Positions 1-61,457 of a stretch of 64,000 bases of DNA are shown here, piece by piece (positions within the stretch are counted from its first letter, which is position 1; every line of letters starts with the position of its first letter). This DNA is from a bacterium (lineage in GTDB: Bacteria > Patescibacteriota > Dojkabacteria > SC72), in assembly GCA_022840695.1 (NCBI GenBank), contig JALHDC010000002.1, forward strand, positions 25,753 to 89,752, in the 5' to 3' direction. The position numbers were made by a program, and so were the translations under genes. The notes below the pieces were generated by a model. It did not search any database and was not told the origin of the DNA. It was given only the letters and a program-made list of their open reading frames with translations.

Positions 1-173
1 CTGACTAAAAGGATACACATTACTTTCCCTCCATTTAACCATTCTCTTGTAGAATTCATAGAAAGATGAACTCTGTTTTTTCCCAAATATTACGTCGAAC
101 ATAGTTAAATATATACTAATGGTGGGAACTATGGAAGATATATTAACAGATTTTAATACACTATGGAAAACTC

Positions 174-202
174 TTGACCAAAATTTTTAATAATGTAACA
201 TA
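174..202 (+). promoter_or_regulatory. possible sigma70-like promoter (TTGACC, 16-17 nt, TAACAT) driving the glmS leader/ribozyme
   Basis: TTGACC at 174-179 with an AT-rich -10-like hexamer about 17 nt downstream; located about 25 nt upstream of the ribozyme. Confidence 0.25.
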
Positions 203-223
203 TACATAGGGTATTTAACATAA

Positions 224-330
224 TAGCGGCTGGGCAATGCTAAGGACATTGCAACGAGGCAGGAGCTATCGAGACATCAGCGGGCACTCCTAGGCTGTAT
301 TGTAAGCCTAAAGGTTAGTTACAAATCCAC
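224..330 (+). ncRNA. glmS ribozyme (GlcN6P-dependent self-cleaving leader) in the 5' UTR of glmS
   Basis: AGCGGC near the expected cleavage site, 6-bp P1-like hairpin GCAATG/CATTGC, AACGAGG (consensus GACGAGG) at 253-259, GGAGC-UAUCGA-...-GCGGGCA-CUCC matching the conserved P2/P2a core (UAUCGA...CGGCGGAUGCC) with a compensatory closing stem, P3-like stem TAGGCT/AGCCTA followed by AAAGG; GC-rich island in an AT-rich UTR immediately upstream of glmS; 3' boundary (P4) uncertain. Confidence 0.75.
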
Positions 331-378
331 AAACTCTAACCAACAATCCCTAATCAATTAAAATAATTAACTACTACC

Positions 379-2166
379 ATGTGCGGCATATTTGGCTACA
401 CCGGATCTAATGTTGCAAACAATTTAATTTTTGACGGATTAAAAAGATTAGAGTATAGAGGGTACGATTCCTGGGGAATAGCGATATTAAAAGAAAATAA
501 AATACACCAATACAAAAACATCGGCTTAGTGAAAAAAGATAAAGATTTAGAAAAACTACCAGATGCTAAAATAGGGATAGGACATACTAGATGGGCAACT
601 CATGGAGGTGTAAAGAAAGTAAATGCCCATCCTCACATTTCGACAGAGAAAGACTTCACAATTGTTCAAAACGGAATGGTTGAAAATTTCGATTCATTAA
701 AAAAGCAACTTCTAAAACAGAAAGCTATATTTAAATCAGAAACAGACACAGAGGTAATTGTTAAACTTGTAGAAAAAGAAGTAAGGAGTGGGAAGTCTCT
801 CAAACAATCGTTAATAACTTCATTTAAAAAATTAGAGGGAAGAAATACCATAGCAATACTTGATTCAAAACAGAATAAAATATATGCAATTAAAAATGGT
901 TCGCCATTAGTTGTAGGACTCTCTAAAGATGGTATATACCTAGCTTCTGATTCTCTCTCCTTCTCTCCATACACTAAAAAAATTGTAGTCCTTGATGACT
1001 ATGATATGGTTGAAATTGAAGGAAAAAATATAAGTATATTCAATATTAAAACGAATAGAAAGAAAAAACCTGAGATTAAAACTTTAAAATATCAGTACGA
1101 GGAGATAGACAAAGGTAAGTATGATCACTTCATGCTTAAAGAAATTGTAGAGCAACAAAAAACAATTAATTATGCCACTGAATATACCTTGGAGGAGCTA
1201 AAACCTCTCCTAGAGGCAATTAGGAGGTCAAAAAAAGCATATATATTAGGAGCTGGTACTGCAGGATTTGCAGCTGGTCAAATTGGATATTTTCTAAGAA
1301 CAATAGCAGGCATAGATGCACAGGATGTAAAGAGCTATGAATTTAGATCATATCTTCCAATCATAACTTCTAAAGATTTAATAATAGCTGTATCACAAAG
1401 TGGAGAAACTGCAGATACAATAGAGCCATTGGAGATTTTGAAAAAGAAAGGTTGTAAGATAGCAAGTTTTGTAAATATGTTTGGTACTACAATATCCAGA
1501 ATGTCAGATTATGAATACTATACTAATGCGGGACCTGAGATATGTGTTGCTTCCACAAAGGTATTTACAGCTCAAAGTGCATGGGGATATCTTTTAGCTA
1601 TGTCATTAGCAGGAAAACATACTACAGCCCATAGAAGATTAAAATTACTAACAAAATCACTTAATAGTCTATTCACACCAAGTAGTTTTGACTACCTTAA
1701 ACGTATGTGTGGGGTTTTAAAAAAGAGTGAGCATATGTTCATATTAGGTAAAGGAGAAAATTCTTTTATAGCCCTAGAGGGAGCTCTAAAGATCAAAGAG
1801 ATTTCATACAAGCATGTGGAAGGCTTCTTTGCAGGAGAATTAAAACATGGAGTAATAGCTCTCATAGAGAAAGGTACTCCTGTATTTGGAATTATACCCG
1901 ATGATCATAAAGATAATGAGAACAAAGACATTATCAGTGCAATAGAACAGGTAAAGGCTAGGGGAGCTTTAACCATAGGTATTGGGAGTGAGCAGTATTC
2001 AAAATTAAAAATATTTGACTATTTCATTCCTACACCTCAAATTAACTCATTAAGTAGTATAGCCAATGTTATACCTTTTCAATTGGTATCATACTTTCTT
2101 TCTTTGCAATTAGGTAATAACATAGATAAACCTAGGAATTTAGCAAAATCAGTCACTGTTAAATAG
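379..2166 (+). CDS. glmS: glutamine--fructose-6-phosphate aminotransferase (isomerising)
   Basis: N-terminal MCGIFGY catalytic Cys nucleophile, two SIS domains, 595 aa. Confidence 0.95.
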   Translation: MCGIFGYTGSNVANNLIFDGLKRLEYRGYDSWGIAILKENKIHQYKNIGLVKKDKDLEKLPDAKIGIGHTRWATHGGVKKVNAHPHISTEKDFTIVQNGMVENFDSLKKQLLKQKAIFKSETDTEVIVKLVEKEVRSGKSLKQSLITSFKKLEGRNTIAILDSKQNKIYAIKNGSPLVVGLSKDGIYLASDSLSFSPYTKKIVVLDDYDMVEIEGKNISIFNIKTNRKKKPEIKTLKYQYEEIDKGKYDHFMLKEIVEQQKTINYATEYTLEELKPLLEAIRRSKKAYILGAGTAGFAAGQIGYFLRTIAGIDAQDVKSYEFRSYLPIITSKDLIIAVSQSGETADTIEPLEILKKKGCKIASFVNMFGTTISRMSDYEYYTNAGPEICVASTKVFTAQSAWGYLLAMSLAGKHTTAHRRLKLLTKSLNSLFTPSSFDYLKRMCGVLKKSEHMFILGKGENSFIALEGALKIKEISYKHVEGFFAGELKHGVIALIEKGTPVFGIIPDDHKDNENKDIISAIEQVKARGALTIGIGSEQYSKLKIFDYFIPTPQINSLSSIANVIPFQLVSYFLSLQLGNNIDKPRNLAKSVTVK

Positions 2167-2190
2167 ACTTAATATGGGTTACAATTAAAT

Positions 2191-2748
2191 ATGGATTCAA
2201 GTAGGAATAAAACTGTAGTGTTGTTTCTGTTAATGGGAGCTACTGTAATATTCTCAATACTGTATGTATTTGTAATACTGCCTAATAATAAAAGTACATT
2301 GGGAAGCTCTGATATACTTCTAGAACTACCAGTACAGAAATGGAATATTAGGTATTCGGAGTATGGAATACTACCATTTTGTAAAGATGATAATACATCA
2401 TTAACATTTGAAGTAGGACCAGATACTACAGTATTTTCATCAGTATCAGGTATTGTAAGCTCTGTTAAGGACAACATCATAACAGTTGAGGTGTCTCCTG
2501 GTATCTATGTAGAGCACTTTCCAGTATCTAATTACAATGTTTTTGAGAATGACTATATAACAAAGGGACAATCAATCGGAAAAGTAGATGGGGAGTATTT
2601 GAATTTAAGAATTAATGTACAAAAGAATGAGTTATATGAATGTCCATATAATTTTTTAAATACATTTGGAAAGAGTATCGTAGATGAGGTATTAGAATTA
2701 GTAGAATATGAGGGTAATGCTTGTGAATGTGCTATTTTAAATTATTAA
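2191..2748 (+). CDS. membrane-anchored hypothetical protein
   Basis: 185-aa ORF with N-terminal TM helix; no recognisable catalytic motif. Confidence 0.4.
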   Translation: MDSSRNKTVVLFLLMGATVIFSILYVFVILPNNKSTLGSSDILLELPVQKWNIRYSEYGILPFCKDDNTSLTFEVGPDTTVFSSVSGIVSSVKDNIITVEVSPGIYVEHFPVSNYNVFENDYITKGQSIGKVDGEYLNLRINVQKNELYECPYNFLNTFGKSIVDEVLELVEYEGNACECAILNY

Positions 2749-2759
2749 TATATAGATAT

Positions 2760-3041
2760 ATGCCTGAGTATGTATACAGTATTATATTGGTATTAGCTAT
2801 TGTAGGTATTATGGTTTGGTGGGTAGCTAAGAAGAGAGGAGAGGAATGGAAGGGAGAAGTAATTAAGAAGAGGTATTCTCCTGGGGATTATGAGAATTCA
2901 CCTAGTTATACTGTAGTGTTTAAGACAGATGAGGGTAAAAAGAAAAGATTTACTACAGCAGATAGTAAATATTATGATTCATGGAATGAGGGAGATAGGG
3001 CAGAGAAGAAGAAAGGAGAGTTTTTTCCAAGTAAGGTGTAG
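2760..3041 (+). CDS. small membrane-anchored hypothetical protein
   Basis: ORF; likely start at internal ATG 2760 (MPEYVY...), one TM then K/E-rich domain. Confidence 0.3.
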   Translation: MPEYVYSIILVLAIVGIMVWWVAKKRGEEWKGEVIKKRYSPGDYENSPSYTVVFKTDEGKKKRFTTADSKYYDSWNEGDRAEKKKGEFFPSKV

Positions 3042-3046
3042 TAATT

Positions 3047-3379
3047 ATGGAATTTGAAACACTTAGAAACAAGCAGGTGTATTTAATAGATAGGGATAAT
3101 AGTCCTTCTAAGTATAAAGAAGATTCTAAAAAGATAGAAGAAGAGATAAGGAAGGAGATATGGAATGGGGAATATAGTAAACCTATCTATTATTATGGTA
3201 TATCAGATGTTTTACCTGAATTAGATAAATTTACAAATGGAGATAGATCTAAGGTTTGTGTTTCTGATAATTGTGTATTTCCTGATAAATATAATAATAC
3301 ATTAGTTTATGTAGCAGAGGATAAGGTTATACATTGGTTTGTTTCTCCTAAGGATGTAGGATTGGAAAGAGGGGATTAG
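3047..3379 (+). CDS. hypothetical protein
   Basis: 110-aa ORF, co-directional, 5-nt spacing from upstream ORF. Confidence 0.35.
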   Translation: MEFETLRNKQVYLIDRDNSPSKYKEDSKKIEEEIRKEIWNGEYSKPIYYYGISDVLPELDKFTNGDRSKVCVSDNCVFPDKYNNTLVYVAEDKVIHWFVSPKDVGLERGD

Positions 3380-3406
3380 TAGGGTATAATTACATTGTTT
3401 TATTAT

Positions 3407-3484
3407 GGTGGATGTAGCTCAACTGGTTAGAGCATCGGTTTGTGGAACCGAGGGTTGTGGGTTCAAATCCCATCTTCCACCCCA
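3407..3484 (+). tRNA. tRNA-His (anticodon GTG) with encoded G-1 and 3' CCA
   Basis: cloverleaf folded by eye: extra G-1 pairing with discriminator C73 (His-specific), acceptor GTGGATG/CTTCCAC, anticodon stem TCGGT/ACCGA, loop TTGTGGA, T-arm GTGGG-TTCAAAT-CCCAT, CCA at 3482-3484. Confidence 0.9.
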
Positions 3485-3485
3485 T
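3472..3485. repeat. attL-like direct repeat (3' end of tRNA-His), ATCTTCCACCCCAT
   Basis: identical 14-mer recurs at 14365-14378; flanking similarity TCAAATC / TGAAATC. Confidence 0.7.
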
Positions 3486-3574
3486 GTAGAGAAACAATCT
3501 CTTTGTATTGGCAGCCTTTATTGATACTAAATCCAAGCTTGAGGTATGGTTCAAGTAGTTCGATAACTTTGTTT

Positions 3575-3793
3575 TTATTTCGTTGTAATCCCCTCATCGT
3601 TATCCTCCTTATATGATCCTGTATCGTCTTCAAATTGATATGGTTGATCATCTTCTGGATATTCAGTTTCCATTGCATTATCATCTTCTAGAAGGTCTGT
3701 AAGAGCCTCTAGAGACTGTTCATCCCCTTCATCGAATGTAGAAGTTTCTTCTGTATCTATTTCATCTTGTGTTGTCTGATCATCGTCATCCAT
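3575..3793 (-). CDS. very acidic small protein (about 45% Asp/Glu), last gene of the RM operon
   Basis: 72-aa ORF, 15 nt downstream of hsdS on the same strand; composition DDDD...EDD; no homology recognisable. Confidence 0.35.
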   Translation of the reverse strand: MDDDDQTTQDEIDTEETSTFDEGDEQSLEALTDLLEDDNAMETEYPEDDQPYQFEDDTGSYKEDNDEGITTK

Positions 3794-3807
3794 ATTTGAT
3801 TATATCG

Positions 3808-5025
3808 CTATATTAGCTTACCTTCAAAGGCTTTTTTAAGGATTGATTGACGGAGTGACTTTATAAAAGCTTTTTGCTCTTGAATCCTACGAATTGATTC
3901 GTCAGAGTATGTCTTTAACTTCTCAAGCTTCTTGGAAATCGCTTTTTGACGGCTTATGTCTTGAGGATAAATAAATGGCAGATTCTCTGTTTTTGATTTA
4001 TTTAATATTGGCAGTGTTGTACTAGAACTCTCAGTAGTGATTAATGAGCGTATTTTTCTGAGATAGAAATAAAGATATTTCATATCGAACTTTGGATTAG
4101 GAATAAAAGAATTGATTTGTTGGTTTGTTGTAAGCTCTACTTCTGCAATCCCGACTTTTCCAATCGTTGCACCTATGCAACATAAGAGTACTGTATCTTC
4201 AGGTAATAGTCTTACAACCCCAGTTTCGATTGCATATTTATCAATATATTTATTAGCCTTTGTGATTACGATTTCTGAGTCAGGTAAATCGCTTGGTCCG
4301 ACAAAAGGTATGTCCTGATTTGTATAGTAAAGTTTCTCCTTTGTTTGGGGTGTTTTTCCCGTGTATACTTGGAAAATATCTCCTAGTGATTTAATTTCCC
4401 AGCGATCATCTTCCTCAGGTAAGGTATGAGGGATAAGCCTCTCTAATGCACTATCCATTACCTTGTTTAATTTATCTTCAGCTTGTTTAAGCTTTGCTTC
4501 TGATTTATCTAATAATGTAAAGCATTCTTTTATTTTTGATAAGATTTCAGACTGTGTTTCTAAATCGGGCAAATTTATAGGAATTTCTCTTATGACTTTC
4601 ATCGGTTTTAAATTCTGCATTGCCGTGCCTGAAGTTTGTAGAAGATATCTCTTTTGGACATATTCTGATTCTAAGTAAAGCTTTAAAAACTCTGAGTACA
4701 CTTTTTCACTTGGTCGGATTCTTAGTAATGCTTGGTTTATAATGCCACTTTTTACACCTTTAGGAGCAATTGATAACTTTCCGATGGTTCCTGAACAACT
4801 CATGATTATGTCATTTGGTATTACTTCGAATGCCTTCATCTCTTGAAACTTCTCGCTATTTATATAATAGGAACCAAGTCTGAAATCATCGTAAATAGCA
4901 TTTTTTTGCTCATACACTTTATAACCATCTGGTACGAAAATGCTCTTCTTTAATGCTCCACCAAAAGGGCCTCTCTTTAGGTCTGCTACTTCATTTAGCT
5001 TGATTGTTTTAAAATTCTTTTTCAT
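3808..5025 (-). CDS. hsdS: type I restriction-modification specificity subunit
   Basis: 405 aa, two-TRD architecture with central and C-terminal conserved coiled-coil spacers, located after hsdM/hsdR. Confidence 0.8.
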   Translation of the reverse strand: MKKNFKTIKLNEVADLKRGPFGGALKKSIFVPDGYKVYEQKNAIYDDFRLGSYYINSEKFQEMKAFEVIPNDIIMSCSGTIGKLSIAPKGVKSGIINQALLRIRPSEKVYSEFLKLYLESEYVQKRYLLQTSGTAMQNLKPMKVIREIPINLPDLETQSEILSKIKECFTLLDKSEAKLKQAEDKLNKVMDSALERLIPHTLPEEDDRWEIKSLGDIFQVYTGKTPQTKEKLYYTNQDIPFVGPSDLPDSEIVITKANKYIDKYAIETGVVRLLPEDTVLLCCIGATIGKVGIAEVELTTNQQINSFIPNPKFDMKYLYFYLRKIRSLITTESSSTTLPILNKSKTENLPFIYPQDISRQKAISKKLEKLKTYSDESIRRIQEQKAFIKSLRQSILKKAFEGKLI

Positions 5026-5034
5026 TGCTATTTA

Positions 5035-5802
5035 TTAAAATGGTAATTCGTTTTCATTACTCACTGATTGAGGCTCTTCAATATTAAACTTTTTGTTGTA
5101 GTAGCTAATTAAAAATATTCCCACCGTAGCAACAGAATTAATGATAAATGAAGCATACAGAGGATTGTCTATAATTCTGTCTTCGGTTAATTTACCATGT
5201 GATCTAGTCTTTTCACTTCGGAGTTGTTCTATTGCTCTTGAAACAGCTAATAAGCTACTGCCTATTGTTTTCACCTCAGTAGGCATTTCTTTTTCTGGAT
5301 ATAATTGAAATTGTTTAAGAATATCAATAGCCTGTTCGTATAAAGTCTTTGTCTTATCAAAGTTTTCAAATTTACTATCCTTTAATATATGTTTTACGAT
5401 GCTTTCTAGTGCAGAATTAGCTAGTGAAATTGCATTATCTGGATGTTCGTAACATTGATTCAGTGCCTGTTTGAATGTTTCTCCAGCTGTTTGGTAGTTT
5501 ACCTTGAAAATATTATATATTTCAGATACCGCAGGTATAAAGTCTGGTGTATTAACTCCTATGTCTGCTGCGATTTGTAAAACGGTCTCATCGTCAATAT
5601 GTGTTAATGTCTGTGTCAAATCTATCTCGTTTGTATCTCCTTTGGTAATTATTACAAAATTCTGATTATTCCAATCATACTCTTCTATCCATTGCTCCAT
5701 GTATTGTCGTACACGCTTATACGTTTTGTATTCGTTCCATATAGCATTTTCAATCTCGAGTAATAACTGCATTTTGAATTTTGGAGAGATCTTATCTATC
5801 AT
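5035..5802 (-). CDS. hypothetical protein inserted between hsdM and hsdS; candidate HEPN/Abi-like defence protein
   Basis: 255 aa, start overlaps hsdM stop by 4 nt; C-terminal R-x6-H (RSEKTRSH) motif compatible with HEPN Rx4-6H; assignment tentative. Confidence 0.5.
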   Translation of the reverse strand: MIDKISPKFKMQLLLEIENAIWNEYKTYKRVRQYMEQWIEEYDWNNQNFVIITKGDTNEIDLTQTLTHIDDETVLQIAADIGVNTPDFIPAVSEIYNIFKVNYQTAGETFKQALNQCYEHPDNAISLANSALESIVKHILKDSKFENFDKTKTLYEQAIDILKQFQLYPEKEMPTEVKTIGSSLLAVSRAIEQLRSEKTRSHGKLTEDRIIDNPLYASFIINSVATVGIFLISYYNKKFNIEEPQSVSNENELPF

Positions 5803-7166
5803 AATTCTTTCTGTAATTTTTCCAAGTTATCTAATACCTCTTTAATATCCTTTATACTCTCTTGTATAAGTACTTCCGGTTCTGGAAGATCATCTAAGTT
5901 TCCTAAGCTCTTATCTTTTATCCAAGTGATATCTAAGTTGAAGTTTCTTTTTTGTATATCTTCATATGTAAATTTCTTCCATCTTTCTGTCTCTTCATTT
6001 CTATTCTGGTGTGCATCTTCAAATTCTTTGAAATAGTTTTTTGTTAATCCTTTTGTTTTGGTGATCTTTTCTACATTAGTTCTCATATCGTAGATCCATA
6101 CTTCTTCTGTTCTCTTACCTGTTTTTTCAAAGAAAAGAACGTTTGTTTTCACTCCTGCAGCATATGGTGTAAATACTCCATCTGGAAGTCTTAGGATAGT
6201 ATGTAGGTTGTTATTCTCTAATAATATCTTTCTAATCTTTTGACCATCGTTATCTTCAAAAAGTACATTGTCGGGCATAACCATTGCACATCTTCCTCCG
6301 ATCTTTAGAATACTCATACAGTGTTGTAGGAAGTTTAACTGCTTGTTACTTGTCTGTACTGTAAAGTCGTCTCTGGTGTATTTAGAGCCTCCAGATTTCG
6401 TTCCAAATGGAGGATTGGTTACTATTACGTCGTATGATCCATATCGTTCTTCTAGAGCGTCTCCAAAGCGTATATTGGCCTCTATATCGTGTAGGTAGAG
6501 GTTCATTATGCATAGTCTTCTTGTATCCCAAACAATCTCACCTCCTGATATTGCTTTCTTTTGTAGAAACTCTTGTTCTTCAATACTTAATGCTTTGTTT
6601 TCTTTTTCTAATTTACTAAATATGTGCTCAAATGCTCCAATTAAGAAGCCTCCTGTACCACAAGCAGGATCGTGTATTGTTTCGTTATGTTTTGGATCTA
6701 CACATTTAACTATTGATTTAATTAATTCTCTTGGTGTGAAGTATTGTCCTGCTCCTTTTTGATCAGCTGCAAATTTAGCTAGAAGGCCTTCATATGCTGT
6801 TCCTTTTACATCTATATCAAGTGTCCCCCAGTCGTTTTCGTTTATTAGAAGTATCAGCTTTGAGAGGTTTACTGGATTTCTGAATTTGTTGTTAGATTGG
6901 GAAAATATATCTCCTAATACGTCTTCTTGTTTCCCAAGTTCTCTAAGCATTTCAGAATAGTGTTCTAGAAGATCTGTACCACTATGTTCTAGCAGTGTAT
7001 TCCATTTATATTTTTCTGGTACATATGCTCCTCTTTCATCTGCCATTTTCAAAAAGAGTAGGTATGTCAACTGTTCAATGTAGTCTCCATAGTGCATACC
7101 GTCTGCTTTGAGTACGTTACAGTATCCCCAAAGTTTATTTACTATGTCTGATTCTTGTTGTGTCAT
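5799..7166 (-). CDS. hsdM: type I RM DNA methyltransferase subunit (N6-adenine)
   Basis: NPPFG catalytic motif (VIVTNPPFGTK), AdoMet-binding region, HsdM N-terminal domain. Confidence 0.9.
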   Translation of the reverse strand: MTQQESDIVNKLWGYCNVLKADGMHYGDYIEQLTYLLFLKMADERGAYVPEKYKWNTLLEHSGTDLLEHYSEMLRELGKQEDVLGDIFSQSNNKFRNPVNLSKLILLINENDWGTLDIDVKGTAYEGLLAKFAADQKGAGQYFTPRELIKSIVKCVDPKHNETIHDPACGTGGFLIGAFEHIFSKLEKENKALSIEEQEFLQKKAISGGEIVWDTRRLCIMNLYLHDIEANIRFGDALEERYGSYDVIVTNPPFGTKSGGSKYTRDDFTVQTSNKQLNFLQHCMSILKIGGRCAMVMPDNVLFEDNDGQKIRKILLENNNLHTILRLPDGVFTPYAAGVKTNVLFFEKTGKRTEEVWIYDMRTNVEKITKTKGLTKNYFKEFEDAHQNRNEETERWKKFTYEDIQKRNFNLDITWIKDKSLGNLDDLPEPEVLIQESIKDIKEVLDNLEKLQKEL

Positions 7167-7167
7167 A

Positions 7168-8718
7168 TTATTCTTGTCCTAAAATTATCTTTTCTAACTC
7201 TTGATAAACCTTCATTTCTGGAGTAATTACTTCTGCCAATTTTTGTTTGTATGTCTTTAGGTCAATACTTTTCAAAGTAGGTGTAACAGTGTTTCTAAAT
7301 GTTATACTTAGATCCTTCAGCTCGTCATTGATTATATCTTTAACCAACTTATCATATTCTTCCTTACTCGCGTTATTATCAAGCTTTGAAACCACCTCCC
7401 AGTCATACAAATAGTTCTCAAGCTCTCTTCGTTTGAGCATTCTTCTTTTGGTCGGATTCACTTTAAGCCATTCATCTCTATTCTCATTGTCTCGATCTTT
7501 TAAAACAAAAATTTTTAGTGAATCAAATGCTTTTGCTAATACCTTTAATGCTATCTCAGAATATCCGTCTGGTTCTGTATTTCCTCCGCTTGATACAAAT
7601 AATATCTCTGGCTTCGTTATCTCAAATATCTTGTTATAACAAATAGCGTCTATTCCTCGTTCATCGTCTGTATCATTGCGACCTTCGCAATAGTAAATCT
7701 GCTCAGGAGCTAGGAGGCCAGTTAAGTCCTCCAATGTTATCTTGAACAACTTTTTCCAATTTGCTGGTGTCGTCTTCATAGGGGTTAGTATTTGTTCAAC
7801 ATCGAAATCCTTATCAAAATCTAGCACAATGCTTTTGTCTTTTAGTTCCTTTTGTAGTGCTTGTAAAAAGCCTATGCTATGTGTTGCTATCCACAACTGG
7901 CAATTGTTAGGTACAAGTTTTTCGATCTCTATTAATAAGTTTCTTTGTATAGAAGGATTTATGTGTAGCTCAGGTTCGTCAATGCAAAAGATTGTATCGT
8001 TATAAGCATCTTTTTTGATAATCAAGTCAAGAACAATGTCTAAAACTTCTTTTTCTCCCGAGGAGAGATCTTCATAAGGTATATTTCGTGCTGATCCTTT
8101 ATGAAAGAATAATTGTCCTCTTTTTTCTATGACATTTCCTAAATCTGCCACTGATATATCTCCAAGAATATTTCTTAGTGATTGGTTAATTTGTCCAAGT
8201 AAATCGTTCATAATTTCTTGCCCAGTTTTTGTTCTTGTTACAAATACATCTTTCCAAGCTTTTCCTTGAAGTCTTTCATAGTTCTCTGTTAATCTGGAAT
8301 CTATCTGAGTCATACTTCCTGGTCTGTTTGTATCATTTAACAAGTCTTGCTCTTGTGCTCGTATCTGAGTGATATTTAGAGAAGGAGTATAACGATATGG
8401 AGTCCTAATGTAAAAACTCTTATTATTCAAGGCTGCTGAGTCCTCTCTTTCCACGTTAATGTTGGAATTTCTCGAGTATGAAGCTCCGCTCGGCTCTGAA
8501 CTTGTTACATATAAAGATTTAGACAGATATGTCACTTGAGGATTATAACTAGAGCCCTTATGATTCTTGTTTAACTCTTCAAAGGCGTCAAATACTGAAC
8601 TTTTCCCCGATCCATTGGGGCCAACAAGTGCTACTATTTTAGGTGAGTATCCATCTAAATCAATCTCAAGATTAGTGAAGCGTTTAAAATCTTTCAGAAT
8701 GACCTTCTTAATTCTCAT
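7168..8718 (-). CDS. ABC/SMC-like ATPase fused to C-terminal Toprim-like domain (OLD-family / PARIS AriA-AriB-like or Gabija GajA-like defence nuclease)
   Basis: Walker A GPNGSGKSS, signature-like LSSGEKEVL, Walker B FCIDEPELH, H-loop ATHS; C-terminal YYCEGRNDTD ... VLKDRDNEN resembling Toprim E/DxD motifs; embedded between hsdR and hsdM with overlapping ends. Confidence 0.6.
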   Translation of the reverse strand: MRIKKVILKDFKRFTNLEIDLDGYSPKIVALVGPNGSGKSSVFDAFEELNKNHKGSSYNPQVTYLSKSLYVTSSEPSGASYSRNSNINVEREDSAALNNKSFYIRTPYRYTPSLNITQIRAQEQDLLNDTNRPGSMTQIDSRLTENYERLQGKAWKDVFVTRTKTGQEIMNDLLGQINQSLRNILGDISVADLGNVIEKRGQLFFHKGSARNIPYEDLSSGEKEVLDIVLDLIIKKDAYNDTIFCIDEPELHINPSIQRNLLIEIEKLVPNNCQLWIATHSIGFLQALQKELKDKSIVLDFDKDFDVEQILTPMKTTPANWKKLFKITLEDLTGLLAPEQIYYCEGRNDTDDERGIDAICYNKIFEITKPEILFVSSGGNTEPDGYSEIALKVLAKAFDSLKIFVLKDRDNENRDEWLKVNPTKRRMLKRRELENYLYDWEVVSKLDNNASKEEYDKLVKDIINDELKDLSITFRNTVTPTLKSIDLKTYKQKLAEVITPEMKVYQELEKIILGQE

Positions 8719-11428
8719 TTGGATACCCTCCTTGTAATACTCGCTGATTTACATCTGCAATAACATACTGTAATTCTCCATTAAAATCGGTATTAGCTTT
8801 GTTATACCCACCTTTTCTTTTGAAGGTAAGGAGGTTGTTGAAGTCTTCTTTTTCTACAACAACATTCCTAGTGAGATGATTCTTTACAAGGTTTAACCAT
8901 TGCAATTGTTGTTGAGTGTATTCATCTAATTTCATAGTACTGAAAGCATTATCTACTCTTTCTTGTGGAGATATCAACTCACCACCATATACAGCATATG
9001 ACACAAAAGAGTAGAGGTCTGCATCTGTTTCTTCTTCTATGATCTGTTCTGCGGCTTCTTGTAATCTTCTTTCTGTAAACATTTCAGGAGTATTCTTCAA
9101 TTGCTCTTTTAGTTCGTTAAAAGCTTTTCTAGTGAAGTCTTTTGGATTCTCTAGAAGTATCCTTAATGCTTGTATAGTATGCTTGTTATCGTTTATGTAT
9201 GTTTTAAACGATTCCATGTAGTCTTCAGGTTTTAGATCTCTTCCATCTGTAGTTTTGAAAAGGTACTCAGAAGTTACAATCTTTGCTTGCCTCTCTCTGG
9301 AAACGATTAACCCATCTCTATATCTTGGGTATCTTTTAACAAATGTTATCCAGTTTGCATCTCCCCATCTTTCTAATTCCTGTTCGTTCTTGCTTGATAA
9401 TCTGTCTTGTACTGAGTCTGCAAGTTTTAGTAATCCATCTTTTTCAATTCCGAACCTATCTTCAAGTTCTTGTCTTCCCTCTTCTGTAATGTTTTTATCC
9501 ATTCGTCTTAGCTTGTTTGCTAGAATCTTCGCGTTCTTATCAATATTCGTTTCATTTTCTAATTCTTCTACCACCTCCTCTATGGATTTGGTGTTTGAAG
9601 GGGCTGTAGGCTCCATTACGCCTCCTTCTTTCTGCATAAACTCTATTACCCCCACTGCGTCAAATACTGTGAAATGGGTCTTTCCTATTTCGTTACAAAG
9701 TCTTGTTCCCCTTCCTATAATCTGCTCATAAAGTATTCTTGATCTAATAGGGCGAATTAGTACTAAGTTTTCAACTTGGGGAATATCAACACCAGTTGAA
9801 AGCATATCTACTGAAACAACAATACTTGGCTTCTTTTCGTTTCTAAAATGTCTTATCCAACTATTCGCTTTATCGATTCTGTATGTGATCTTTTGAATCT
9901 CATCTGGATATTTTATCTCTTCTTGTAATAGTTTTACTAATTGATCTGCGTGATCTTCGTTTACTGCGTAGAATATGGTCTTAGGTATTCTTTCGCCCTC
10001 TTTTTTAATGTAGGAGAGCACTTCTTGTACAATTTTTCTGTTTCTATCTTCAACTGTAACTTTTCTTTCTAATGAAGCCGTTTGAATGTTCAATTCATCT
10101 TCTAGGAAGGTACTAAATCTGTATGTACCACCTCTGTCTCTAACTTCTACCGCTTCTCCCTTTTGAAGTTCAATCTCTTTTGCCATATCTATGTCAGTTT
10201 GTATCCTTACAGCGTCAAAGTCTACTAAGTATCCTTCGTGTACTGCTTTTTCGTATGGGTAGTAGTAGATGTCTTTTTCGGTATGACAATCAAAATATGC
10301 TGCAGTATGAGCGGCTGGTGTTGCCGTTAATCCAATTTGATAACTATCGAAATAGTCGAGAACGTATTTCCACTTGTTGTAAATTGATCGATGGCATTCA
10401 TCTGAAATGATTAAGTCGAAGCTATCAATTGGGAAATCTGGATTATATTTGATTTCTGAATCCCCTAACTCTTCCCAGTTCTCATCTTCAATGTCTGTAT
10501 AACTTACTTTTTTTCCTGTTAATGTTGCATATAGTCCCTGTATCGTTGACACATAGACAAATGAGTTTACATTCTGTCGATTCTTCAAATTCTTGAGTTG
10601 TAATTGTTCTGCTCCTAGATCTTTTGGATCTTCGTCTCCTTTAAACAATCTATCAAAATATACTGGATATACAGTGTTAAATTTCTGGCCTGTTACTGGC
10701 TCAAACGTTGAGAATGCTGAGATTGCCTGAGAAGCAAGTGATCTTCTATCAACTAGAAACAGGATTCTTTTGAAATATCCTGTTCTCATTAAGTGATAGA
10801 TCAATGCTGAAGCCATAAAGGTTTTGCCTGTACCTGTTGCCATAGCTACGAGTCCTTTTCTTTTGCCTTCAAGTATTCGTTTAACTGCATACTCGACTGC
10901 TTCCTTTTGGTATTTTCTTAATCCCTTTTGTCCGTACTTCTCTATAACTTGTTCTGTTTCAAGTTCTCTTAGTGCCTCGTTTTTTGAATCTGAGAGCAAT
11001 TCGTTTAATGCTTCTGGTGTATGAAATCCTTTTACTCGTCTTGGTATCGAATTATTGATATGCAATTCTTGGAATGTTATTTCATTTCCGTCTGTACTGT
11101 ATATGAATGGTACTTTGTATTCTCCGTAGAGCTTTGGAAGGTCGATATCTTGGGCGTATCTCTTAGCTTGTGCAATGACTCCTTCTGTTGAGGTGTTATC
11201 CTTCTTGGCTTCTACAATCGCAATTGCTTTGCCATTAAAAGTTAATAAGTAGTCAGCTGGTCCTGAGACTGTTCCAAATTCTACTATTGCGTCTTTACTG
11301 CTATTAGTGAGGTCTTCTTTTGTTCGAGTGACTTTCCATCCAGCGTCTTTTAGAAGTTTATCAATACTATCTTTTCTAGTATTCTTTTCACTTTTGTAAG
11401 TCTTCGTAAATCTGAATGGTAGTTCCAT
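8708..11428 (-). CDS. hsdR: type I restriction enzyme R subunit (endonuclease/helicase)
   Basis: N-terminal PD-(D/E)xK nuclease (IVEAKKD), SF2 helicase motifs MATGTGKT and DECHR, 906 aa. Confidence 0.9.
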   Translation of the reverse strand: MELPFRFTKTYKSEKNTRKDSIDKLLKDAGWKVTRTKEDLTNSSKDAIVEFGTVSGPADYLLTFNGKAIAIVEAKKDNTSTEGVIAQAKRYAQDIDLPKLYGEYKVPFIYSTDGNEITFQELHINNSIPRRVKGFHTPEALNELLSDSKNEALRELETEQVIEKYGQKGLRKYQKEAVEYAVKRILEGKRKGLVAMATGTGKTFMASALIYHLMRTGYFKRILFLVDRRSLASQAISAFSTFEPVTGQKFNTVYPVYFDRLFKGDEDPKDLGAEQLQLKNLKNRQNVNSFVYVSTIQGLYATLTGKKVSYTDIEDENWEELGDSEIKYNPDFPIDSFDLIISDECHRSIYNKWKYVLDYFDSYQIGLTATPAAHTAAYFDCHTEKDIYYYPYEKAVHEGYLVDFDAVRIQTDIDMAKEIELQKGEAVEVRDRGGTYRFSTFLEDELNIQTASLERKVTVEDRNRKIVQEVLSYIKKEGERIPKTIFYAVNEDHADQLVKLLQEEIKYPDEIQKITYRIDKANSWIRHFRNEKKPSIVVSVDMLSTGVDIPQVENLVLIRPIRSRILYEQIIGRGTRLCNEIGKTHFTVFDAVGVIEFMQKEGGVMEPTAPSNTKSIEEVVEELENETNIDKNAKILANKLRRMDKNITEEGRQELEDRFGIEKDGLLKLADSVQDRLSSKNEQELERWGDANWITFVKRYPRYRDGLIVSRERQAKIVTSEYLFKTTDGRDLKPEDYMESFKTYINDNKHTIQALRILLENPKDFTRKAFNELKEQLKNTPEMFTERRLQEAAEQIIEEETDADLYSFVSYAVYGGELISPQERVDNAFSTMKLDEYTQQQLQWLNLVKNHLTRNVVVEKEDFNNLLTFKRKGGYNKANTDFNGELQYVIADVNQRVLQGGYPNEN

Positions 11429-11449
11429 AATGTCTTATTATATCGCAGA

Positions 11450-13747
11450 TTATTGTGTCTGAATAGCCATTTCTGATAGCTTTTGCTCTATTCTGTTCCA
11501 GTCTAAAATTAAATCTAAACTCTGATTCCACCAGTCACTAAATGGCAATTGTGAATCAGTCTTTTTTATTTCACTATATTGTCCAACTCGAAGTGTATCA
11601 GTCGATGGAATATTGTATGTACCTGATTCAGTAATCAACCATCTGTCGTGCAAGGAATTCTTTAATTCTGAATCTAAAATGACACGCATTTCTGCGTTTA
11701 TACCTCTGTAGTTGAGCTCTTCTTTTAAGGTTTTGAACTTTTCTCGAATCTTATGGTCTACTTTATTTATCGAAGTTATAATTTTTACAGAGGAGATTTT
11801 TGAATCTGAGCTTTCTGATATGCTTTCGGATATTAAATCCAAGCCTACGACTGAAAAGTATTTGTCTACCCATTTGATTTCGCCATATTGAGCTTTGATT
11901 ATATCCTTGAGATGTTTTGTATTCGTGTATGGACTTTGTGGTGTTATTAGGATCGTTTCCTTTTGAGCTCCTTCAAAAATGCTTCTTAATTCATTAATGA
12001 TTGTCTTCTTTCTCTCTTGAATGAAGTCATTAAAGTCTTCAGATCCGAAATTTTCTCTCGTCAGTATTTCAATAGCCTTTCTAGAAAGAAGATGTGTTTG
12101 CATTAGATCGTAGAATTGCTCGTCATTTCCGATATTTCTCTTTATCTCGTTGAGGTAATCGCTTGGAAGTCTGTCGCTAATCTTCTTGTTTGTATCATTT
12201 GAAATAGGAGCTTTGTTTAATATCGTATTTATGTCTTTTATTCCGTTTTTCTTACCCCAAGATGCTGGAACAATGTGGTGATCTTCTAATACTGAATACT
12301 CTGGTAGATTGTTTGTATAGAAATCTCTTGCTTCGTTTCTAGCAAACAAACTGAATATTGCATTATATATAGCAGTATTCTGCCTATTCTCTCTAACCAA
12401 ATCTAGATTCTCAATAGTATTAACGGCTCTTTGAACCACATTTGGTGTTATTGAATCGTCTTCTATCCATTTTTTGAGGTCTAAGTAGTCTTTTGTCATT
12501 GTTGATTCAACACTGCTCGAATAACTGTTGGATAGTACAGAAGCCCAATACCATTGTGTAATCTTCTTATCAAAAGCTTGCTGTTTTGTTGAATCGAGTG
12601 ACTCTTTTTCTTTCAGTAGAACAGCGAGAATTGGGGTCATAGTTGGATATGGAATAAACTTTGGTTGAAGTGATCCAAAATCCCTAGGATTCTCGATTTT
12701 TGCTAAAGCCTTTTGAGTATATTGTAAGGCCTCACCCCAGTATTGTGTGAATTCTTCCGGGCTTGTCATAATAACACGTTTCTCTTTTGAACCATCTTCT
12801 TTTCTAATTGTTCTTTGCGTATTAGGCACCAAGTAGTAAAGGTATCTAGGTGAGCAATATCCTTGTAGTCTGATCGACATATACTGAAGAAGGTATATGT
12901 TCATCTTTTCTAATTCCTTGTGGTTATAATTTTCAGAAGCAATTCTCCAGTTTTTCTTAAGCTCAATAGCGTGAGGCTTCAATAACGCGTTGAGAAGATC
13001 GAAGATCGTAAGTTTCAACCCAGATGAGTTGATTTTTGTAAATATATCGCACACCTTTGCGACATCGATGTCCTTTGAAAGCTCTATGTAGCTAATATCG
13101 TAACTATTAAGTAATGATTGGAAGAACTTCTCTAGCTTCTGAACTTTCTCTTCTTTTTCGGTATACCCTTGTTTCTCTAACCAATTTCCATACTGTACAA
13201 CCCACTTATACCATTCAAAGCCTTGACCAAGAAGATAAAGTGGGAATAGTCCTTCTTCGAATTGCTTTTCTAATGGTCCTACAAATTCTTCAGCAGTTCT
13301 TTGTCTTGAAGTATTGTCATTTCTGTACTCAATTGATTCGTCCCAATCGTCTTCTAAAATACTGTTTAGTTTAACAAAGAAATAGAAACGAGTTTTTCTT
13401 TTTGGAAATGGCTCTGTAGGTGGGAAAAATGCATAATGTAGAGCACTAAGTCTCTGTTGTCCGTCTAAAACAATGTGTTGGGCTGTATATTTTAGTTTCT
13501 CTTTATTGATCTTGTTAAATCCGTATATAGACTCACAATTCAGTTTATCGAAGTTTTCTGGGGTTGATCTCCAGAGAAGTAGTGTACCAATGTAATAATC
13601 TGCGAATATTGATTGCAACAATGCTTGTATATCCCAAGGTCCCCATTCAAATTCTCTTTGAAAGTCTGGAATTACATAGAATCCAGAATCTATTGCAGTT
13701 AGTATTTTGCTAAGATTGTCTTTTGACGGAGTCTCTAGGTCTCGCAT
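11450..13747 (-). CDS. DUF262 (ParB-like NTPase) / DUF1524 (His-Me finger) protein, GmrSD/BrxU-like type IV restriction enzyme, with extra C-terminal domain
   Basis: N-terminal FQREFEW and DGQQR motifs; EDHHIVP...N His-Me finger motif; 765 aa with about 200-aa uncharacterised C-terminal extension; first gene of the operon. Confidence 0.75.
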   Translation of the reverse strand: MRDLETPSKDNLSKILTAIDSGFYVIPDFQREFEWGPWDIQALLQSIFADYYIGTLLLWRSTPENFDKLNCESIYGFNKINKEKLKYTAQHIVLDGQQRLSALHYAFFPPTEPFPKRKTRFYFFVKLNSILEDDWDESIEYRNDNTSRQRTAEEFVGPLEKQFEEGLFPLYLLGQGFEWYKWVVQYGNWLEKQGYTEKEEKVQKLEKFFQSLLNSYDISYIELSKDIDVAKVCDIFTKINSSGLKLTIFDLLNALLKPHAIELKKNWRIASENYNHKELEKMNIYLLQYMSIRLQGYCSPRYLYYLVPNTQRTIRKEDGSKEKRVIMTSPEEFTQYWGEALQYTQKALAKIENPRDFGSLQPKFIPYPTMTPILAVLLKEKESLDSTKQQAFDKKITQWYWASVLSNSYSSSVESTMTKDYLDLKKWIEDDSITPNVVQRAVNTIENLDLVRENRQNTAIYNAIFSLFARNEARDFYTNNLPEYSVLEDHHIVPASWGKKNGIKDINTILNKAPISNDTNKKISDRLPSDYLNEIKRNIGNDEQFYDLMQTHLLSRKAIEILTRENFGSEDFNDFIQERKKTIINELRSIFEGAQKETILITPQSPYTNTKHLKDIIKAQYGEIKWVDKYFSVVGLDLISESISESSDSKISSVKIITSINKVDHKIREKFKTLKEELNYRGINAEMRVILDSELKNSLHDRWLITESGTYNIPSTDTLRVGQYSEIKKTDSQLPFSDWWNQSLDLILDWNRIEQKLSEMAIQTQ

Positions 13748-61339: not shown

Positions 61340-61457
61340 TGCCTAATATAACATATCACAACTACTGTTCATAGTCCTGTAATATGAATTATACAAGATG
61401 ATTATGTTCATTAATAATATTTTTTCTGCTATACTTTCGATATCAAAATCTGCCCAT

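Follow-up and report, generated by a model that had tools for sequence, protein, structure and literature searches.

A compact member of the glmS ribozyme family upstream of glmS in a probable Dojkabacteria (WS6) genome

The glmS ribozyme is, to our knowledge, the only known natural ribozyme that takes a metabolite as its cofactor. The glmS ribozymes of B. subtilis, B. anthracis and T. tengcongensis lie in the 5' untranslated region (5' UTR) of glmS, on the same strand as the gene, and have an A^G cleavage site that opens onto GCG; they share the core segments ACGAGG and UCG (P2.1) and GCGG (P2.2), the helices P1, P2, P3, P3.1 and P4, and an adenine-rich IL4. The full-length type found in Bacillus and Thermoanaerobacter adds P4.1, a GNRA tetraloop at L4 and a contact between L4 and a G-C receptor in P1; this P4.1/L4 architecture is a peripheral layer that does not define the family, RF00234. 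The contact is reported to be important for the full-length B. subtilis ribozyme, in which both the contact and the IL4 adenines are sensitive to mutation (PMC11602151).

P2.2 has been described residue by residue in T. tengcongensis, where C2 pairs with G56, G3 with C55, C4 with G54, C5 with G53 and G7 with C52, leaving A6 bulged (PMC7125110). Substitution A6C rescues either C4A or C5G: position 6 then pairs with residue 53, and it is position 4 or 5 that bulges (Andreasson et al. 2020, PMC7125110). Positions 4, 5, 6 and 53 were proposed to covary in nature (PMC7125110).

The element described here has all of the features that those three ribozymes have in common; its host belongs to the CPR and has hardly any Shine-Dalgarno sites. 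Unlike the full-length type, it is without P4.1, the L4 GNRA tetraloop and the L4-P1 receptor contact. Compared with the textbook ribozyme, it has a short P1 of 6-7 bp and carries A or U in place of G just ahead of ACGAGG, and its P2.2 reads GCG[G]CUG/UCAGCGG in place of GCGCC(A)G/UCGGCGG, with the bulge at position 4 instead of position 6.

Family match, gene context and host

We refer to the whole stretch of DNA analysed, 64 kb in length, as the window. When all 4227 Rfam families were compared with both of its strands by cmscan, five matches exceeded the gathering score, namely four tRNAs and RF00234, the glmS ribozyme. The RF00234 match lies at 214-351 on the plus strand. Its score of 47.0 bits exceeds the gathering score of 37 (E = 8.3e-8), and it spans the whole model (positions 1-167 of 167); at permissive E values, window positions 1-3600 yielded nothing besides RF00234 and one tRNA. 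The sequence-only reading had placed a glmS ribozyme upstream of glmS and had named the RF00234 threshold beforehand as one point on which it could be refuted; this score and the GlmS open reading frame (ORF) downstream bear it out. Sequence comparison therefore confirms the element as a genuine member of the glmS ribozyme family, in a compact but otherwise ordinary form, and its annotation is routine in that any Rfam-based pipeline would call RF00234 here.

The motifs singled out by that reading are all present, with AACGAGG at 253, TATCGA at 267 and GCGG at 280, as are the two stems, GGAG at 262 with CTCC at 287 and TAGGCT at 291 with AGCCTA at 305; the first of these, then called P2a-like, is P2 itself (261-265 with 287-291). 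The interval proposed, 224-330, starts at the predicted cleavage site A225^G226 and ends about 20 nt too early, as the 3' strands of P4 (336-341) and of the P3.1 pseudoknot (343-347) lie beyond 330. A GC-rich island had also been described, and the G+C fraction is indeed 0.48 at 226-347, compared with 0.24 at 103-225, 0.26 at 348-378 and 0.315 over the window. The distribution it gave for the family, monoderm-like lineages and a few other phyla, fits a host in the CPR (Dojkabacteria/WS6).

The gene and its promoter-like site are as follows:
379..2166, plus strand: glmS, glutamine--fructose-6-phosphate transaminase, 595 aa (Pfam GATase_6/7 and two SIS domains; TIGR01135)
174..201, plus strand: promoter-like site from a consensus scan, -35 TTGACC (174-179), 16-nt spacer, -10 TAACAT (196-201)

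The ORF at 379-2166, whose product begins MCGIFGY, is a GlmS equivalog (NCBIfam TIGR01135, 576.7 bits against a cut-off of 418), and its ATG at 379 stands 27 nt from the end of the RF00234 match at 351, on the same strand. The TTGACC ... TGTAA(T/C)AT arrangement recurs at equal distance in the leaders of relatives. Transcription is predicted to begin near 207-209, leaving some 17 nt ahead of the cleavage site, and window 207-352 is best explained as the untranslated 5' leader of the mRNA for GlmS.

No intrinsic-terminator-like site was found between the ribozyme and the glmS ATG, and an attenuator read-out is unlikely given its absence from the leader. A read-out by masking of a Shine-Dalgarno site is also unlikely, since glmS has no such site to mask and the genome rarely uses them: a Shine-Dalgarno-like motif is found for 5 of the 49 window ORFs of at least 140 aa, three of the five being in the defence island listed below. 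A conserved C/A-rich motif of the ACUAC type precedes the glmS ATG in place of a Shine-Dalgarno site. In some genes, for example that for pyruvate kinase at 61398, a TATAAT- or TGTAATAT-like box precedes the ATG by 10-20 nt; together with the rarity of Shine-Dalgarno sites, such boxes suggest that mRNAs in this genome may be very short in their leaders or leaderless, and glmS, with a leader of about 170 nt, is an exception.

Relatives whose GlmS is 56-78% identical belong to genomes that bear the name Candidatus Dojkabacteria, with Saccharibacteria given in some automated metagenome-assembled genome (MAG) labels, and by these relatives the host, an uncultured and ultra-small bacterium, is placed in Candidatus Dojkabacteria, the candidate division WS6 of the CPR. 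MurB and a polysaccharide deacetylase are encoded in the window; MurB points to a cell-wall precursor pathway, and this gene content indicates that the host makes peptidoglycan precursor and that the GlcN6P pathway feeds its cell wall.

Downstream of glmS, the block at 2191-3379, which is conserved in relatives, encodes three proteins: one of 185 aa whose weak match to Peptidase_M23 stays under the Pfam cut-off, one with DUF7489 and one of 110 aa with no family. This block is possibly co-transcribed with glmS, as the sequence up to 2400 showed no terminator-like site. Directly after tRNA-His(gtg) (3408-3484) lies a defence island, which with the tRNA spans 3408-13747, all on the minus strand:
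3808-5025, minus strand: type I restriction-modification HsdS
5035-5802, minus strand: Abi_C/AbiJ-like gene
5799-7166, minus strand: HsdM
7168-8718, minus strand: AAA_21 / AriA-PtuA-like ATPase
8708-11428, minus strand: HsdR
11450-13747, minus strand: GmrSD_N/HEC-05-like nuclease

A related contig from another sample has the same glmS-tRNA block with an extra DUF7736 gene after the tRNA, showing that this spot is variable.

Conservation and the catalytic core

Loci of relatives were gathered by GlmS-guided retrieval, that is, independently of the RNA sequence. The retrieval yielded 38 glmS loci of Dojkabacteria type whose upstream DNA is intact (31 distinct), and every one of the 38 has an RF00234 match above threshold (45.4-64.5 bits), the window's 47 bits being among the lowest; in the 13 copies measured, the match ends 27-36 nt before the ATG. 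RF00234 was absent at six GlmS loci of other lineages (L018, L019, L021 and L043-L045, a set that includes a Woesearchaeota archaeon, Zixibacteria and an alphaproteobacterium).

To count pairs, we annotated 29 distinct sequences, aligned with MAFFT, with the helices known for the family. Helix cells were paired in 92.1% of cases, compared with 79.9% in column-preserving shuffles, and pairing fell to 30-46% when partners were slid by 1-3 columns. Both sides had changed at 27 of 43 pairs, P3.1 pseudoknot included (P1, 5/7; P2, 4/5; P3, 3/6; P4, 6/6; P3.1, 5/5), and the covariation score was 0.373 against 0.164 in shuffles; for neither measure did any of 500 shuffles reach the observed value. Given no structure, RNAalifold recovered P1, P2, P3 and P4. 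It also paired UCG with CGG in the P2 loop, a pairing we rejected because in solved structures these invariant nucleotides belong to P2.1 and P2.2 (PMC7125110). The nested minimum-free-energy (MFE) fold was not more stable than shuffles (z = -1.25), as is expected of a pseudoknotted RNA.

A bit score that is moderate on its own might reflect a chance resemblance within a G+C-richer patch of A+T-rich intergenic DNA. We consider this vanishingly improbable, as the E value was obtained over the whole window and all Rfam families, the match is on the correct strand and in the correct place before glmS, and it recurs, with covariation, at 38 of 38 related loci.

The catalytic core comprises the following features:
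225..226, plus strand: predicted cleavage site, A225 (A-1) / G226 (G1), from alignment to the RF00234 consensus aA^GCGCC
227..232, plus strand: P2.2 5' strand, C227 G228 [G229 bulged] C230 U231 G232, pairing with G282 C281 G280 A279 C278
233..253, plus strand: P1 hairpin, 233-239 with 247-253, loop CUAAGGA; 92.7% of cells pair
254..259, plus strand: ACGAGG core, invariant in 29/29, in which C255 G256 A257 are the P2.1 5' strand
261..291, plus strand: P2, 261-265 AGGAG with 287-291 CUCCU; 100% paired

In the bulge-shifted register, P2.2 forms five of five pairs in all 31 distinct sequences; the standard register was rejected, since it leaves two mismatches in every Dojkabacteria-type sequence. 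The 5' segment reads GCG(G/A)CUG or GCGUAUG, with the partner UCAGCGG, and the bulge is at position 4 (G/A4), or at position 5 (A5) in the GCGUAU subgroup. These pairs are invariant within the clade, and covariation there is zero. The Dojkabacteria naturally have the arrangement of the double mutants of PMC7125110, in their case as a predicted U6:A53 pair with G/A4 or A5 bulged; the mutants are laboratory constructs in which activity was partly restored, whereas the Dojkabacteria arrangement is fixed in a natural clade, which thus appears to be a natural instance of P2.2 bulge migration.

P2.1 is formed by CGA at 255-257 with U269 C270 G271 and is paired in 100% of sequences. G256 aligns with the active-site guanine of B. 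subtilis (Bsu G39); the roles of P2.1 residues as active-site guanine and in the cofactor pocket have been described (PMC7125110, PMC11602151). The P2 loop holds the P2.1 3' strand (269-271), an A272:U277 pair, the P2.2 3' strand (278-282) and G283, and within it UCG and AUCAGCGG are invariant in the 29-sequence alignment. At position 284, directly 3' of GCGG, the window and roughly half of its relatives have G; the B. subtilis counterpart is A68, which lies close to the cofactor site.

Across the Dojkabacteria-type alignment the invariant core thus consists of A^GCG (unchanged in 31 of 31 relatives), UGGG, ACGAGG, UCG and AUCAGCGG, and it is conserved across GlmS divergence down to 56% identity. 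Invariant nucleotides give no covariation signal but indicate strong constraint, and the pattern points to strong purifying selection on every nucleotide of the catalytic core.

The P1 loop (240-246, CUAAGGA) has a peculiarity of its own, in that AAGG(A) occurs in many Dojkabacteria-type P1 loops, in subgroups with unlike P1 stems. As L4 is lost, this loop could conceivably make a tertiary contact; for AAGG(A) no partner that is conserved was found.

The reduced periphery

Downstream of P2, the element contains:
292..309, plus strand: P3 hairpin, 292-296 with 305-309; 96.6% paired
313..341, plus strand: P4 hairpin, 313-318 with 336-341, 17-nt terminal loop 319-335
343..347, plus strand: P3.1 pseudoknot 3' strand ACAAU, pairing with 299-303

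A sixth P3 pair, 297:304, is formed in most relatives and is a G.A mismatch in the window. The P3 loop at 299-303 (AUUGU) supplies the 5' strand of P3.1. When P3.1 was analysed free of alignment register, a cognate duplex of 4-7 bp between loop and tail was found in 31 of 31 sequences, in at least ten compensated versions, among them AUUG/CAAU, AUUAC/GUAAU, AUGUAC/GUACAU, ACUG/CAGU, GCUG/CAGC, AGUAU/AUACU and ACAC/GUGU.

The P4 loop keeps IL4-like adenines, CAAA (322-325) and ACAAA (329-333), which are invariant or nearly so and which cmscan aligns to the AAA and ACAAAG of the model. The element lacks P4.1 together with the GNRA loop L4, 18 model positions being replaced by a single nucleotide in the cmscan alignment; the two IL4 strands are joined in one hairpin loop of 14-17 nt across the Dojkabacteria-type copies, with only 2-3 nt between them in all 31 distinct sequences. 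The clade has therefore retained the IL4 adenines, which would brace P2.1, and has lost the L4-P1 contact.

Outside this group, RF00234 precedes glmS at three further loci: L041 (970-1126), L042 (513-672) and L020, at 88.4, 79.9 and 62.3 bits. L041 and L042, both metagenome contigs, hold the nearest GlmS relatives from outside the Dojkabacteria (45-48% identity), and their leaders continue for some 75 nt more downstream of the ribozyme. Their ribozymes are full-size, carrying P4.1 with a GUAA tetraloop and P2.2 in the standard register (GCGUGUG with UCUGCGG), and they would serve well as outgroups in dating when P4.1 was lost. L020 is near-canonical and has an insert of P4.1 length, a consensus P2.2 (GCGCC with UCGGCGG) and a GGAGG Shine-Dalgarno site. 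It lies at 2328-2480 on a contig labelled 'uncultured Muribaculaceae' (CAYYQX010000010.1), and its GlmS is only 37% identical to that of the window; the label is unexpected for this ribozyme and may reflect mis-binning.

The missing tetraloop-receptor contact, together with a core that is off consensus at positions 4-6 and 53 (T. tengcongensis core numbering), is what might be seen in a decayed or re-purposed descendant of the ribozyme that no longer cleaves, or cleaves with no need for GlcN6P, a requirement that a few active-site mutations can abolish (PMC11602151). We regard such decay as very unlikely. The purifying selection on all core nucleotides extends over GlmS divergence down to 56% identity, the change in P2.2 is compensated in 31 of 31 sequences, the IL4 adenines are kept and the helices covary; retention of core, P2.2 and helices to this degree is not expected of a relic.

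Proposed mechanism and the transcript ends

The family score, the glmS context, conservation across the clade, covariation and invariance of the core together argue for family membership. By analogy with the studied ribozymes (PMC5473149, PMC7125110, PMC11602151), we consider it highly probable that 207-352 folds as a glmS ribozyme and that its GlcN6P-dependent cleavage at A225/G226 lowers GlmS synthesis. Points that weigh against this reading are a score near the bottom of the clade's range, the loss of the L4-P1 contact and the G at position 284. The RNA would fold into a doubly pseudoknotted core (P2.2, P1, P2.1 and P2) with P3, the P3.1 pseudoknot and a short P4 on its 3' side; GlcN6P would bind a preformed pocket as catalytic cofactor, as in the Bacillus and Thermoanaerobacter ribozymes. 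Cleavage between A225 and G226 would leave a 2',3'-cyclic phosphate on the short leader fragment and a 5'-hydroxyl on the glmS message, the cleaved message would be degraded, and GlmS synthesis would drop when its product is plentiful. In B. subtilis, decay of the cleaved glmS mRNA needs RNase J1. A scan of 20 large ORFs in the window turned up nothing resembling RNase J; one RNase J-family annotation in the CPR, from Saccharibacteria, appears in a review table (PMC10340364).

Two short segments flank the ribozyme and may form an additional helix, which we call 'P0':
207..211, plus strand: leader UAGGG at the probable mRNA 5' end, candidate 5' strand of 'P0'
348..352, plus strand: tail CCCUA directly after P3.1, candidate 3' strand of 'P0'

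RNAalifold and the single-sequence MFE fold both pair 207-211 with 348-352. CCC follows P3.1 invariably (31 of 31 relatives). All but one of the 31 have GGG (the exception has GGA), and it sits in every case 6-7 nt downstream of the -10 box; its spacing is fixed relative to the promoter and varies relative to the cleavage site (14-18 nt). Double changes seen in 'P0' on the MAFFT alignment were discounted as a product of shifted columns, and in a register-aware covariation test of leader and tail, cognate pairs gave 4.87 bp and non-cognate pairs 4.58 bp. 'P0' is thus a candidate for a 5'-terminal clamp helix, as yet unproven. A clamp of this kind, if real, could replace the lost L4-P1 tether, or protect the 5' end of the uncleaved mRNA until cleavage.

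Such a shield would offer another route to decay of the message. An active ribozyme could then act in a manner different from that in Bacillus, cleavage removing a protective 5' end (triphosphate plus GGG:CCC clamp) and exposing the message to a 5'-end-dependent nuclease. In favour of this are the GGG at the predicted transcript start and the invariant CCC right after P3.1, their predicted pairing by both methods, and the tying of GGG to the promoter instead of to the cleavage site. Against it, the clamp is short (3-7 bp, mostly 4), GGG and CCC never covary, the one exceptional leader (L008) has GGA facing CCC with no compensating change, and cognate complementarity is hardly above that of non-cognate leaders and tails; the transcription start that supports the clamp is itself a prediction. 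On this evidence we think this decay route unlikely. A broader proposal, which we advance tentatively and also hold to be somewhat improbable, is that of a miniaturised glmS subclass throughout the Dojkabacteria, in which the P4.1/L4-P1 tether was lost, the P2.2 bulge moved and a new GGG:CCC clamp arose as substitute tether or 5' shield. Were it true, cleavage would both create the 5'-OH and remove the shield.

The preferred reading, of an active ribozyme lowering GlmS synthesis in response to GlcN6P, extends the hosts of the glmS ribozyme to a CPR/Patescibacteria lineage; no paper linking glmS ribozymes with CPR, Patescibacteria or WS6 was found in the searchable literature. The RNA family is a known one, and the clade-specific compact architecture is its noteworthy part, if a modest one. 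The compact form would allow two published ideas to be put to the test, the weight of the L4-P1 contact and the tolerance of P2.2 to migration of its bulge, and could serve as a small GlcN6P-responsive part for engineering. For the organism, it suggests that a reduced genome, here with few Shine-Dalgarno sites, still devotes some 145 nt of structured RNA to regulating the synthesis of cell-wall precursors by feedback.
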